A DNA stretch of 12,767 nucleotides from Candidatus Wukongarchaeum yapensis (GCA_016840425.1 JAEOSI010000040.1:1-12767); one strand, 5' to 3'; shown: positions 4,004 through 7,632, counted from the first letter of the stretch. The notes: a model not told the origin generated them from the letters alone. Translations and numbers: made by a program.

Positions 4004-4504
4004 TCAGCTTTCCTCCATCTTTTTTAGCGCTTCTTCAACAGCCTCTTGAGCAGCTTCCCTGATTTTTTCTAACCGACCACGAGAAACACCGCTTTCCTCC
4101 ACTATCTTGTCCAAATCTCCTTCTAAAAGGTCTTTTGTAGAGGTAATACCTACATTGCTAAGCTTTTCAAGCATGACTTTTCCCACACCTTTCACACCGC
4201 TCAATTCAACAAGCTCTGCTACTTCCTTTAATTCCCTTTCAACGGCTCCTTTCTTTGCCTTTACTCTCCCTTTTTTCACAACTTCTTTCTCTACTTTAAG
4301 GGTCTCTGTAAACTCCTGTAAAGCCCTAATATTCTCCTCATAGGCTGTTCTCCGCCGAGTATCAACACTTAACCCGAACTTTCTAGCCATTTTAACCGAT
4401 AAATTAACCGCACTTAACTCTTTTAAACTGAAACCTTTACCCTGCCTAAAAGGCTTCACCATATCTGCTGAGGGCGTTTTTACTACAGACCTTGGCAAAT
4501 CCAT
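4004..4504 (-). CDS. rpl13e: Ribosomal protein eL13 (L13e) fused to a C-terminal helix-hairpin-helix domain
   Basis: L13e signature RQGKGFSLKEL...ARKFGLSVDTRRRT...NIRAL. C-terminal LSGVKGVGKVMLEKLSNVGITSTKDLL...SGVSRGRLEKIREAA is HhH-like. GGAG lies 8 nt before ATG 4504 and only 2 nt before ATG 4510. Confidence 0.9.
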   Translation of the reverse strand: MDLPRSVVKTPSADMVKPFRQGKGFSLKELSAVNLSVKMARKFGLSVDTRRRTAYEENIRALQEFTETLKVEKEVVKKGRVKAKKGAVERELKEVAELVELSGVKGVGKVMLEKLSNVGITSTKDLLEGDLDKIVEESGVSRGRLEKIREAAQEAVEEALKKMEES

Positions 4505-4622
4505 GTTCATTTCTCCAACCTTTTATAAGGACTAAACAATATTAATCCCTATAAAATATTTTTATTCTTCTAAAAACTTAAGCATATTTTATTATCTTTC
4601 TAACTCAAGAAGATGATAATGC

Positions 4623-5036: not shown

Positions 5037-6341
5037 TTACATTTTTTCTTCCTTTTCTAATCTTTTTATGAAAGATAGCAATGTTGGCAAAAAGGTGCCT
5101 ATATCTGTTACAATCCCTACAGCGTGCATTGTACCCCTATCCAAAAGCTTTGTCACTGTAGCCTGACTTATATCAATAACTATGGTCCGCACTTTCGAAG
5201 GCAACAAGTTTCCCACAGCTATCGAATGAAGCGCAGTAGCCATCATCAACACAAGCGCCGCATTTCTCAAATGTTTACGCATAGCCTCCTGCGCCTCTAC
5301 AACATCGGTAATCACATCAGGGATAGGCCCATCATCTCGAATTGACCCTGCTAAAACATAAGGTACATCACTTTTTATACACTCGTAAAAAACCCCGCTC
5401 TTCAACACGCTCTTCTCCACAGCTTCTCTCAACGATCCCGCTTTTCTTACCTCATTAATCGCCGCCATATGATGCCTATGACCCCCCTCATGAGTCTCTA
5501 CACTCTTTAAATTCATGCCTAAAGAAGTTCCAAAAAGAGAATATTCTACATCATGTACTGCTAAAGCATTTCCTGAAAGAAGAGCATCAACATAACCCTT
5601 CCTTATAAGCTCGGCTAAAGTATCCCGAGCCCCTGAATGTATAATCGCAGGTCCGGCGACGATCACTATCTTACCATTTCCCCTTTTGATCTCTAAGATC
5701 TCCTTAGCAATAAGTCTTGCATACGTTGTAGACGGCTTTTCAGAACTGGCAGTAGACGCCATGAACTCAAAAATTTCCCGCCTTCTTGGCCTTTCAGGAG
5801 GAACAACCTTAATCCCCTTAGACCCTGTAACAACCATATCCCCCTTTTTAACCTTAGAAATAGGCACAGTAAAAGCCCTCCCATCCCGAATAACTATCGC
5901 CTTATCCATCTCAGGATTTTCAACAAGAAGCCAATGTCCTCCTAAACGAATAAAAGTCTCATGATGCGTAGTAGAGTAAAAAGAATCAGGAAGAACCCCA
6001 TCAGCAGATGCAGATTCCAAAACCACATCTTCCTCCACTCCTTTAACCACTGCACCAAAAACCTGCAACTCACTAATTATTTCCGAAAGCTTCTCTTCAT
6101 TCTCTGCAAAAATTCTAATAGTACACCGAGAATAATCCTTTTCCGTCTCTCCAACATGAAAATTCAAAAACTTAAGGTTAGCATCATGATCATAGATTAA
6201 ACCAAGAACTTTAGGAAGAATAAAACTATCAATTAAATGGCCTTCAAGATTTATATCTACGTGAGCTCGAAGCCTTTCAAACACCCTAGATTCTTCTGAA
6301 GATTTCACCACCAAATCATCATAATGGTCATTCTTGCCCAA
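5037..6341 (-). CDS. TIGR00300-family protein (LOR/SDH conserved N-domain; ornithine cyclodeaminase-like, homologous to the C-terminal part of AgrE/ArgZ)
   Basis: GHLIDS, FYSTTHH..., EMD, FEFMASTASSEKP, GPAIIHSG, GNALAVHDVE, GHRHHM, LAGSIRDDGP, HSIAVGNLLP, KLLDRGT. TTG start with AGGTGGTG RBS. Confidence 0.9.
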   Translation of the reverse strand: MGKNDHYDDLVVKSSEESRVFERLRAHVDINLEGHLIDSFILPKVLGLIYDHDANLKFLNFHVGETEKDYSRCTIRIFAENEEKLSEIISELQVFGAVVKGVEEDVVLESASADGVLPDSFYSTTHHETFIRLGGHWLLVENPEMDKAIVIRDGRAFTVPISKVKKGDMVVTGSKGIKVVPPERPRRREIFEFMASTASSEKPSTTYARLIAKEILEIKRGNGKIVIVAGPAIIHSGARDTLAELIRKGYVDALLSGNALAVHDVEYSLFGTSLGMNLKSVETHEGGHRHHMAAINEVRKAGSLREAVEKSVLKSGVFYECIKSDVPYVLAGSIRDDGPIPDVITDVVEAQEAMRKHLRNAALVLMMATALHSIAVGNLLPSKVRTIVIDISQATVTKLLDRGTMHAVGIVTDIGTFLPTLLSFIKRLEKEEKM

Positions 6342-6366
6342 AAATCAACACCACCTAATCACTATA

Positions 6367-6394
6367 ATAACTAAAAGCGCATAACTAAAGGCGT
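6367..6394. repeat. Tandem 14-bp imperfect direct repeat upstream of the TIGR00300 gene
   Basis: ATAACTAAAAGCGC (6367-6380) followed by ATAACTAAAGGCGT (6381-6394); 12/14 identical. Confidence 0.4.
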
Positions 6395-6498
6395 GGAAGT
6401 AATACCTCAATAATATCTCGCGCTTATTTTAACAATTTCCTGTAAAATTTTAAGAAAAACTTTTCATACACCTAAATAAAAGTTAACAAAACCGTTTA

Positions 6499-6514
6499 CA
6501 AATAACTTTATTAA
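6499..6514 (+). promoter_or_regulatory. Candidate archaeal BRE/TATA promoter for the putative ncRNA
   Basis: TTTATTAA at 6507-6514 begins 27-30 nt before the 5' arm of the terminal helix (6534-6537), which is standard archaeal spacing. Confidence 0.5.
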
Positions 6515-6533
6515 GAAGGGAAACGTAAAGATA

Positions 6534-6766
6534 ATTCCCCGTGGATAAAAGTTCTTGAACCTAGGAAAATTTTCTAAAAACTGAAGCGAAGGAAGATAAT
6601 GCGCAAATCTAACGACGCTAAAGTTTGAGGAAAATTATGTGGCTACGCAAGAACAAAGTTCGTGCGGGTGAAATCGCCAGAAACAGATGGCAAAAATACG
6701 ATTAAGGTCGTGTTAGCCGGAAGTTGATGGATGAAATTAACCCGCAACAAACAATCCGCGGGGAAT
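6534..6766 (+). ncRNA. Putative novel structured non-coding RNA (~233 nt), family not recognised
   Basis: 13-bp closing helix ATTCCCCGTGGAT (6534-6546) / ATCCGCGGGGAAT (6754-6766) with one G-U pair that works only on the plus strand. Internal helices: 6551-57/6648-54; 6562-67/6571-76; 6578-82/6622-26 + 6585-88/6616-19 + 6594-97/6607-10; 6663-67/6742-46; 6676-79/6688-91; 6695-6702/6707-14; 6723-28/6736-41. Flanked by a TATA box and T-runs. Confidence 0.65.
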
Positions 6767-6767
6767 A

Positions 6768-6815
6768 TTTTATTTTTTTATCTCCTTTTTTTTAAATTAA
6801 ATTAGGTTTTTTTTT
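6768..6815 (+). terminator. Oligo-T archaeal-type terminator cluster
   Basis: T7 (6773-6779), T8 (6786-6793) and T9 (6807-6815) directly after the ncRNA closing helix; no plus-strand protein gene lies immediately upstream. Confidence 0.55.
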
Positions 6816-6824
6816 CGGTTTGTT

Positions 6825-7085
6825 TTAGGTGTATAATAGTTTTCTCATTGGGTCGTTTGCTTCCATTCTTTTTATGTGGTATTCAAGAATTTTTCGTATT
6901 TTTTTAAGGGTTAAAACTTTTTCTTCTAAAGTGCGTTCTTTTCCATAGCCAAACTCTTCTTTTAAGAAGGTTTCAACCTGTTTTTCAGCCAATTCTTTTA
7001 AATGTTCTTTAATCTCTTTTTCAAGCTCTTCTATCTGTTTTCTTAGTTTTTCTTCTTTTTCTTTTACCGTTTTTTTGACCTCCAA
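6825..7085 (-). CDS. Hypothetical 86-aa charged coiled-coil/helical hairpin protein
   Basis: TTG start with AAAGGA upstream; heptad-like EKEEKLRKQIEELEKEIKEHLKELAEK; no family recognised. Confidence 0.68.
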   Translation of the reverse strand: MEVKKTVKEKEEKLRKQIEELEKEIKEHLKELAEKQVETFLKEEFGYGKERTLEEKVLTLKKIRKILEYHIKRMEANDPMRKLLYT

Positions 7086-7151
7086 CAGATTCCTTTTTGA
7101 TTTGAAAATTTAAATGAATAGCCTTGAATTATTTTTACCGGTTTTAATCCT

Positions 7152-7215
7152 GTTCTATGATGTTACGGGACTTTGCTAACCTCAGAACTATTAGAGGCGC
7201 AGGATCGCCTATAAT
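7152..7215. other. Two adjacent imperfect hairpins/palindromes in an intergenic region
   Basis: GTTC..TGA.GTTA / TAAC.TCAGAAC (7152-7188), and ATTAGAGGCG-CAGGAT-CGCCTATAAT (7190-7215, 9/10 paired). Confidence 0.4.
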
Positions 7216-7266
7216 GTTTAATATTTTCAAGTATGCTTCTGCCATTGTTTTTTCGAATGTTTTTAA

Positions 7267-7632
7267 TTATTCAGGGGTTAGTTCTTCTATAAATCCATAA
7301 AAATTAACAGCAACACGTTTACAACAAGAGACTGGTATTGTTTTTGAATGGATTTCTTCTAGAGGGCAATTTTTTATTTTAAGAAGATCCAACTCCCTGT
7401 TTGCTTCTATTTTGTCCCTAATAAACCAGTTCTCAAATTCGTCTTTTCCTATGTGTTTCTGTTCCATGTCTTCTAAGCTTTCTCTTAATTTTTCTTTTAT
7501 CGCGTCCTCTCCCTCTGCTAAACCGTAATTTTCGAAATATTCTACTATTTCGCTGAAATTTTTAGGATCATGAGTTGAAAGTATTTGGAGAATTGATGCT
7601 CCCATTTTCTCTTTAGTAAGGCTCGAACTCAT
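7267..7632 (-). CDS. Hypothetical 121-aa protein, probable N-terminal winged helix-turn-helix
   Basis: ATG with GGGGT upstream. Three predicted helices (GASILQILST / NFSEIVEYFENYG / AIKEKLRESLEDMEQK) followed by a wing-like HIGKDEFENWFIR, and a Cys-containing tail. Confidence 0.68.
   Translation of the reverse strand: MSSSLTKEKMGASILQILSTHDPKNFSEIVEYFENYGLAEGEDAIKEKLRESLEDMEQKHIGKDEFENWFIRDKIEANRELDLLKIKNCPLEEIHSKTIPVSCCKRVAVNFYGFIEELTPE

Follow-up and report, generated by a model that had tools for sequence, protein, structure and literature searches.

The window, a 12,767-nt stretch of DNA from Candidatus Wukongarchaeum yapensis (GCA_016840425.1 JAEOSI010000040.1:1-12767), harbors on its plus strand, at positions 6534 to 6766, a structured non-coding RNA of about 233 nt that comprises a closing helix, P1, and two arms, D1 and D2, arranged as a three-way junction. 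The fold, covariance-model matches at six loci and contigs from RNA libraries, together with the strand signals described below, indicate that this is very probably a genuine plus-strand structured RNA gene, and it is a candidate new RNA family, well supported as a real gene. The reading that we favor as a whole, namely a stand-alone ncRNA gene whose three-way junction product acts in trans as the RNA or scaffold of a ribonucleoprotein (RNP), is given a probability of roughly 45%. Our literature search found no paper describing this RNA.

The minimum free energy (MFE) of the plus strand is -85.5 kcal/mol, as compared to -47.8 ± 4.4 kcal/mol for 200 dinucleotide shuffles, none of which folds as well (z = -8.56). 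An earlier note on this DNA had proposed comparison with shuffles as a check, and the RNA passes it clearly. The minus strand of the same interval gives -69.9 kcal/mol (z = -7.2), and the homologues from the congeneric genome G001 and from contig L089 fold on their plus strands with z-scores of -7.52 and -9.48, respectively. Three independent single-sequence folds, of the RNA from the W. yapensis genome (G000), from G001 and from L089, yield an identical architecture, in which a 13-bp helix joins the two ends and A-rich linkers connect it to two long irregular hairpin arms. P1 pairs its 5' strand, AUUCCCCGUGGAU (6534-6546), with its 3' strand, AUCCGCGGGGAAU (6754-6766), through 12 Watson-Crick pairs and one G-U pair; the same pairing evidence supports both strands, and a contig from RNA library X17 reaches position 6762 in the latter. 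Junction strand J1/2 (AAAA, 6547-6550) opens with the A of the UpA step 6546/6547, where RNA-library contigs of three studies end. Arm D1 (6551-6654), shared by the three folds, starts with the 7-bp helix P2 (GUUCUUG/CAAGAAC, 6551-6557 with 6648-6654), in which a single U-A to U-G change is seen among the homologues, and continues as a long hairpin of several segments, interrupted by purine-rich internal loops. Sequence variation within the RNA is greatest in the distal third of this arm. Junction strand J2/3 (AAA, 6655-6657) is invariant in the six homologues and leads into arm D2 (6658-6752), whose pairing is supported by a compensatory pair and by G-U switches. In D2, helix P3 of 10-11 bp (6658-6668 with 6741-6752) opens into the internal loop YGAAA x AAUUAA(A), beyond which three short helices with purine-rich loops between them lead to an apical hairpin (6698-6711, ACGAU/GUCGU). 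Finally, a single A links D2 back to P1. Across the homologues, hardly any variation is seen at the junction or in the proximal half of either arm.

The 13-bp end-joining helix, the 7-bp helix that closes the first domain and the A-rich linkers (AAAA, AAA and A) had all been described correctly in the earlier note. The UGCGG/CCGCA helix that it placed at the base of the second domain is also present, but it belongs to a longer helix of 10-11 bp. The interiors of the arms had been drawn differently. Instead of a short hairpin beside a long one, D1 forms one continuous multi-segment hairpin with no separate short hairpin, and instead of three hairpins D2 forms a single long irregular one. Of the six homologues, five have one or two A-C mismatches in the GCCA/UGGC hairpin proposed for D2. 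The long hairpin, by contrast, leaves nearly all cells paired, with a single A-C (in L090) and one compensatory change from C-G to U-A. The two T-loop-like segments suggested for the same domain do not hold up either: the first reads CGAAA in four of the six homologues, which removes the U that a T-loop needs, and in the second the UGA takes part in consensus pairs. Readings as a double T-loop that would bind a tRNA elbow, or of CCUAGG/UAUGUGG as an 11-nt GAAA receptor, were both rejected, the required bases not being conserved among the six homologues. A K-turn-like register noticed in D2 by eye (CAGA before AAC, opposite GUU, then 4 nt, then GAUG) needs a 4-nt bulge where a K-turn has 3 nt, and it competes with the consensus pairing.

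A BLAST search over 60 relatives revealed one homologue, in the congener G001 (C5:5549-5783, 89% identity). Further copies were reached via the neighboring ornithine cyclodeaminase-like protein, whose 90% cluster has 34 members and at least four sequence lineages. The Hodarchaeota metagenome contigs encoding four of these members (L089 to L092) carry the RNA at the corresponding place and in the corresponding orientation. The resulting six homologues, the W. yapensis copy included, are 85-97% identical, have a common gene neighborhood, with the TIGR00300/ornithine cyclodeaminase-like gene on one side and a small orphan gene on the other, and match the covariance model with 231-288 bits. They differ by indels of 1-2 nt, which we count as evidence for a non-coding sequence, and no ORF longer than 35 aa is found within the RNA.

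In the model-based alignment of these six sequences, 98.6% of the 438 cells from 73 pairs hold standard pairs, as compared to 31-50% in a control in which the 3' partners were slid by 1-3 columns. Two pairs are compensatory, one of them (A-U to U-A) the outermost of P1 and the other (C-G to U-A) in the GGC/GCC helix of D2. About eight further pairs switch between G-U and Watson-Crick forms, and ten extra pair types are counted. The switches include single-side changes in P1 (U-G to U-A in three homologues, A-U to G-U in L092) and switches in D2 (G-U to A-U, G-U to G-C and U-G to C-G). A 2-nt insertion in L089 lengthens a D2 helix and does not break its pairing. Variable columns are fewer among paired positions (18 of 146) than among unpaired ones (31 of 94; Fisher p = 1.5e-4). 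The covariation score is reached by 12 of 500 column shuffles of homologues that are close kin (at least 85% identical). The further homologues that had been asked for number five and keep the pairing, but the covariation events are few and both full compensatory changes come from L089 alone.

Beyond these sequences, a search with covariance model R1 over 150 genomes of the phylum gave a single weak match outside the genus-level clade, in G148. It was rejected as a chance match because it lies inside a 436-aa ORF. Model R2 was run over the class, which in GTDB consists of G000, G001 and G002 only, and found nothing in G002, a member of another family (91% complete). Nothing similar was seen at the ornithine cyclodeaminase-like gene loci of five more distant Asgard genomes, none of the 33 loci from a 19-mer metagenome scan matches the model, and viral contigs gave 0 matches. 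A genome-contig search returned only the contig of G001 as a real match. Near-identical sequence occurs in DNA runs from marine sediment, seawater, mangrove and other sediments, and the nearest named records are labeled 'Candidatus Hodarchaeota archaeon', in line with the Asgard origin that had been supposed from the sequence. The RNA is known from one genus-level clade, with at least eight sequence variants. This narrow range may be real, or the RNA may have diverged beyond reach elsewhere in a poorly sampled class.

The RNA is present as a single copy in G000, in a gap of 483 nt between two genes. On its left, a minus-strand gene (5037-6341) encodes a TIGR00300/ornithine cyclodeaminase-like protein with an ArgZ-like C-terminal domain and a LOR/SDH N-terminal domain; on its right, an 86-aa coiled-coil ORF occupies positions 6825-7085, also on the minus strand. 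The plus strand of the RNA is divergent from the former gene and convergent on the latter, and the RNA contigs described below reach neither. A riboswitch or 5' leader of the plus strand was rejected on these grounds, in agreement with the earlier note, which had argued against a 5' UTR riboswitch. In L089 and L090, the RNA, the 86-aa gene and a 162-aa gene are found together, flanked by lipoate ligase and ornithine cyclodeaminase-like genes. L091 has an 87-aa gene and a cut 108-aa gene on the corresponding side of the RNA, and the L092 contig ends just past it. Neither the 162-aa nor the 86-aa protein belongs to a Pfam or NCBIfam family or has a useful Atlas match; a comparison of the 162-aa protein with 5.8 billion proteins gave relatives in this clade only, and its gene in G000 has an in-frame stop. 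No repeats or integrase were seen near the RNA, and ARAGORN found neither a tRNA nor a tmRNA. A 20-nt near-identity between the RNA and an ORF-free spacer of the same genome (G000:C92) does not extend further.

A TATA-box-like promoter element, TTTATTAA (6507-6514), lies about 23-27 nt upstream of the RNA and is invariant in the six loci. The 19 nt in between vary, and conservation resumes at about 6535, at the start of the closing helix. Past the 3' end, oligo-T runs (T4, T7, T8 and T9, 6768-6815) are likely archaeal termination signals; the first of these runs are kept in five of the six loci and are missing from L091 through a deletion. The longest T run inside the gene is T4 on the plus strand, as compared to two T5 runs on the minus strand. 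On the minus strand, 4-8 G-U pairs of each homologue would turn into A-C, and no more than one or two A-C mismatches of the plus strand would turn into G-U. A separate conserved block at 6419-6450 is likelier to be the promoter region of the ornithine cyclodeaminase-like gene. The G-U pairs, the TATA box at the expected distance and the T7/T8/T9 runs had each been singled out in the earlier note, and all three were recovered here; they point to the plus strand as the one that is probably transcribed.

Four metatranscriptome runs, which belong to three studies, contain index words of the locus. They have 0.05-0.07 of the words of a 701-nt interval and 0.17-0.22 of those of the 251 nt around the RNA, and all of their words therefore fall within it. 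We mapped contigs to positions 6300-7000 from three RNA runs (X17, X18 and X20) and one DNA run (X10). X17 gave one contig of 218 nt (6545-6762), X18 one contig (6546-6681), and X20 two contigs that represent two sequence variants (6546-6688 and about 6552-6758). In all three RNA runs depth is zero over 6300-6539 and over 6828-7000, and the only matches to the right of the RNA are two of low complexity, 54 nt each, which X20 has on the T-runs (6773-6815). The DNA run covers the entire 6300-7000 interval and the RNA runs cover the RNA only, a pattern that DNA contamination would not produce. They differ from the window by 2-13% and therefore come from related strains or species, which adds at least two more sequence lineages. 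Their depth is 2.5-8x, and they establish presence only, saying nothing on the strand, ends or level of the RNA. The proposal that the RNA is independently transcribed is supported by the invariant TATA box, by conservation that starts at the closing helix, by the oligo-T runs and by flank-free RNA contigs from three studies.

On the left, the contigs end at 6545 (X17), 6546 (X18) and 6546 (X20), at the UpA step between P1 and the AAAA linker, and none covers 6534-6544 in the 5' strand of P1. On the right, they reach 6758-6762, that is 5-9 nt into the 3' strand. A sequencing adapter directly abuts position 6546 in X20, and four unlisted letters precede the end in X18. Either the adapters of X18 and X20 are in opposite orientation or the libraries are unstranded, and the strand was not read from them. 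These ends are a weak hint of a real RNA end, and the mature RNA may be without the 5' strand of P1 (6534-6544). Processing at the 5' end, self-cleavage, a labile UpA at the exposed junction and the loss of low-coverage ends are all possible origins; the X17 contig may lack about 11-13 nt at each end. As the pairing of P1 survives three changes, both of its strands are probably part of a functional RNA at some stage. A circular RNA was rejected, since the X17 contig is colinear with the gene and has no back-joint.

We searched for known families that could account for the RNA. At the gathering score, Rfam models applied to the whole window gave no family match to it, and at E up to 10 over 6400-6900 only junk matches appeared, on the minus strand or upstream and none on the plus strand inside the RNA, which agrees with the statement in the earlier note that no family is recognizable. 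RNase P RNA was rejected because a canonical RF00373 gene is found elsewhere in the genome (G000:C123:7930-8284, 184.6 bits) and the RNA itself has no match to this model; conversely, model R2 does not match the canonical RNase P RNA locus of G000. SRP RNA was rejected because G001 carries a canonical RF01857 gene (C81:1178-1492, 164.6 bits) besides the RNA; no SRP RNA was found in G000 (92% complete). Among known self-cleaving ribozymes (hammerhead, twister, pistol, hatchet, hairpin and HDV-like), none gave an Rfam match, and the junction strands AAAA, AAA and A are unlike the hammerhead core CUGANGA/GAAA. A TnpB/IscB omega-RNA or transposon guide RNA was rejected in view of the single copy, the neighbors (an ornithine cyclodeaminase-like gene and orphans) and the locking of both ends in P1, and HEARO and omega-RNA models do not match. 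The 6S and Y RNA models do not match either, and the terminal C/D boxes of box C/D guide sRNAs are absent. The Ro60/TROVE domain (PF05731) was not found in G000, G001 or G002, which are 87-92% complete, although a very distant Ro60 could escape this search.

The comparison with 5S rRNA required closer attention. Both are stand-alone genes for a three-way junction closed by a terminal helix, with two arms that carry purine-rich internal loops. Model RF00001 detects no 5S rRNA in G000, G001 or G002 at E up to 0.01, and none over 6400-6900 or in the whole of G000 at E up to 10. Wu et al. (2022) reported having been unable to predict 5S genes in closed Heimdallarchaeum genomes (PMC8813620), and an expanded 5S rRNA of 231 nt is known from Halococcus (Stepanov and Fox 2021, PMC7812874). 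Arm D2 of L090 and L092 contains an 11-nt match, CCGGAAGUUAA, to the conserved strand of 5S helix III and loop B. Within G001 this match shrinks to 8 nt, and the shared motif is for this reason probably due to chance. Seven canonical Asgard 5S sequences were compared with the RNA; all that they share with it is a GGAAGUUAA-like stretch, which is located in its second arm. The loop C sequence that 5S rRNA has in its first arm (CCGAAC ... GGAAGUUAAGC) is absent, as are loop E (AGUA/GAA), helix IV and the loop D arm. A permissive search of G001 revealed two adjacent partial 5S matches at C1:43458-43674. This locus starts with GGAAGUUAAGCC and ends with CCGAACUCGGAA; in between are the motifs of loop E and helix IV as well as the two strands of helix I. 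A 9-bp inverted repeat, CAACGCCUG/CAGGCGUUG, flanks the locus. To judge from these canonical motifs, it is a circularly permuted 5S gene; it is not in the G000 assembly. As G001 has this separate 5S gene, the present RNA is not 5S rRNA, and an expanded or divergent 5S was rejected.

Five other explanations of the locus were weighed. That the RNA is a divergent or expanded universal RNA, 5S rRNA mainly or else SRP RNA or RNase P RNA, could be argued from its junction strands of 4, 3 and 1 nt, which are as in 5S loop A, from its size and the 11-nt match, and from the failure of RF00001 in three genomes. It is nevertheless scarcely credible: G001 has the RNA together with a permuted 5S and a canonical SRP RNA, G000 has a canonical RNase P RNA, the 5S-like motif is in the wrong arm with no loop E/helix IV arm beside it, and the 5S, SRP and RNase P models score nothing at E up to 10. 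An element on the minus strand, either a leader or riboswitch of the ornithine cyclodeaminase-like gene or an RNA that runs from about 6766 to the TTTT at 6550-6547, is also very improbable. It would lie upstream of and co-directional with the gene at 6341-5037, the minus strand folds better than shuffles, with an MFE 1-3 kcal/mol below that of the plus strand in G001 and L091, and the contig ends at 6545-6547 coincide with a minus-strand T4 run. However, its 4-8 A-C mismatches in place of G-U pairs, and single-side changes that are mostly G-U/Watson-Crick switches of the plus strand, argue against it. Its two internal T5 runs should terminate archaeal transcription, P1 keeps its pairing yet could not form in an RNA ending at 6547, and RNA contigs are absent over 6342-6544 towards the gene, where the block at 6419-6450 is more readily taken as a promoter region.

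The contig ends bear most directly on the idea that the transcript is cut at the junction UpA (U6546/A6547), either by a cellular nuclease that processes it or by its own action as a new ribozyme. Its mature form would then begin at about 6547, with the 13-nt 5' piece lost or annealed to the 3' strand. The coincidence of ends from three studies, the abutting adapter in X20 and a conserved TATA box that places the transcription start near 6534-6541, upstream of the contig ends, favor such a cut. We consider it unlikely, because contigs cannot establish RNA ends, a UpA in a single-stranded junction is also the most labile bond during extraction or fragmentation, and depth is low enough for ends to be lost. 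The junction lacks a hammerhead core and no known self-cleaving family matches, and the pairing-preserving changes in P1 argue for both strands in the functional RNA. A decoy that titrates a nucleic-acid-binding protein, in the manner of 6S, CsrB or Y RNA, is an outside chance. The stand-alone gene, the apparent high abundance, the long end-joining helix and the repeated purine-rich internal loops would suit this role, but no TROVE/Ro60 domain is found in the three genomes, no 6S or Y RNA model matches and no candidate partner is encoded nearby. Y RNA and 6S RNA are likewise abundant, stable and non-coding, with a long helix joining the ends; at 233 nt, the three-way RNA is more than twice the size of a Y RNA and more elaborate, and we know of no 6S-like RNA in archaea. 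Finally, the RNA might form an accessory cassette with the 86-aa and 162-aa orphan genes, as an antitoxin-like, defense-related or element-derived RNA among housekeeping genes. The grouping of the three in L089 and L090, with a lipoate ligase gene on one side and an ornithine cyclodeaminase-like gene on the other, the clade restriction of the 162-aa protein and its in-frame stop in G000, as expected of a dispensable gene, point that way. This is quite unlikely in view of the single copy, the stable synteny, the lack of nearby repeats or integrase and the lack of a viral contig match. Furthermore, the RNA is far better conserved than the neighboring spacer, RNA libraries contain it but none of the stretch examined from the 86-aa gene (6825-7000), and the convergent arrangement gives no operon link.

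The role as an RNP RNA or scaffold is, tentatively, the most likely single reading of what the RNA does, although taken by itself it is less likely than not. Transcription would start about 25 nt downstream of the conserved TATA box and end in the oligo-T runs past the gene. The product would fold as a three-way junction, the 13-bp helix closing its ends and A-rich linkers joining the two arms, with the tip of D1 free to vary. The RNA is probably stable and abundant, because it alone was recovered from rare organisms, and it would act in trans, being divergent from one neighboring gene and convergent on the second. Interaction surfaces would be formed by its invariant junction and proximal internal loops, and the conserved purine-rich internal loops and the junction would serve as docking sites for a lineage-specific ribonucleoprotein of which the RNA is a subunit or scaffold. 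We prefer an RNP because the size and ornateness of the RNA resemble those of known RNP RNAs, because it offers neither free ends nor long single-stranded segments for base-pairing, and because structured RNAs of archaea are generally protein-bound.

The closest parallels support comparison in different respects. RNase P RNA and SRP RNA, at 250-350 nt, are abundant RNP RNAs with housekeeping roles that are transcribed from promoters of their own. The present RNA is reminiscent of them in being seen in metatranscriptomes though its organism is rare; in contrast to them, it has neither a P4-type pseudoknot nor the SRP helix 8 motif. With the large orphan structured ncRNAs of prokaryotes (raiA, OLE, ROOL/GOLLD and the 'ornate' RNAs of the Breaker laboratory) it shares a stand-alone gene, a multi-helix fold with conserved junctions and internal loops, a high apparent abundance and a discovery from sequence and structure ahead of function. 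Those classes come from bacteria or phages and are covered by Rfam models that do not match here, whereas this RNA is archaeal, smaller than OLE, ROOL and GOLLD, and confined so far to one genus-level clade.

RNAs of more than 200 nt with an elaborate conserved fold are rare, and most of those that are understood are ribozymes or the cores of essential ribonucleoproteins. There is a slim chance that the present RNA founds a class of large structured RNAs, new to science, in the archaeal lineage nearest to eukaryotes and has a biochemical role of its own, either as a ribozyme that cuts itself at U6546/A6547 or as the core of an unknown abundant ribonucleoprotein. To our knowledge, rRNA, RNase P RNA and SRP RNA essentially make up the large structured housekeeping RNAs of archaea for which families have been described; the smaller structured ones are tRNAs and guide RNAs. 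The importance of the finding is limited by a known range of one genus-level clade and by the lack of a functional clue. It does indicate that the RNA annotation of Hodarchaeota genomes is incomplete, the 5S gene of the genus being itself permuted and invisible to standard models. Hodarchaeota are an Asgard lineage central to models of eukaryote origin, and an additional abundant structured RNA in these archaea would be a concrete target for biochemistry in enrichment cultures.

Within the structured RNA (window 6534-6766, plus strand), all four bases are found across variants at position 6614, in an internal loop of arm D1. The base is G in the window, C in the congener genome G001, A in the metatranscriptome runs X17 and X18, the DNA run X10 and the Hodarchaeota metagenome contig L090, and T in one contig from metatranscriptome run X20. 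Position 6614 is a fully unconstrained site, and the rest of the RNA is conserved. The upper part of arm D2 shows a 20-nt near-identity (GCAAAAACACGATTAAGGTC; E 0.006) to positions 676-709 of contig L032 (G000:C92:676-709), a different contig of the window's own assembly, within an AT-rich 500-nt spacer without an ORF. The match may be due to chance, because similarity of this spacer to arm D2 does not extend past the 20-nt stretch.

The spacer that separates the RNA gene from the ornithine cyclodeaminase-like gene (5037-6341, minus strand) harbors a 32-nt block, TCGCGCTT.TTTTAACAATTTCCTGTAAAATTT (6419-6450), that is near-invariant in all six loci carrying the RNA, while the surrounding spacer is variable and includes a 25-nt indel. 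The block is probably a promoter or 5' UTR element of that minus-strand gene. A fusion of a ribosomal protein eL13 domain with a helix-hairpin-helix module (Pfam L13e and HHH_5; 4004-4510, minus strand) is common to the window and the related contig L089. Downstream of the RNA, codon 122 of a 162-aa orphan gene (7140-7632, minus strand) is an in-frame stop, whereas the 98% identical L090 orthologue encodes Gln at this position; the stop could stem from a nonsense mutation or an error in sequencing, or the codon could be recoded.

Motifs and weak matches to the Rfam 5S rRNA model (RF00001) identify a locus in G001 (C1:43458-43674, equivalent to L102:1409-1625) as a circularly permuted 5S rRNA gene. 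Its sequence opens with GGAAGUUAAGCC, continues through loop E and helix IV and the two strands of helix I, and closes with CCGAACUCGGAA; an inverted repeat, CAACGCCUG/CAGGCGUUG, lies on both sides. RF00001 detects it only as two neighbouring weak matches (17.9 and 16.1 bits). Neither a counterpart of this locus nor SRP RNA (RF01857) was found in the window's own genome assembly (92% complete, 277 contigs), and both absences probably represent assembly gaps. Similar neighbouring double matches occur in G002, from another family of the class (C1:83457-83597), and in genomes G003, G014 and G021. 5S genes have been stated to be unpredictable in Heimdallarchaeum (PMC8813620), which circularly permuted 5S genes would explain.
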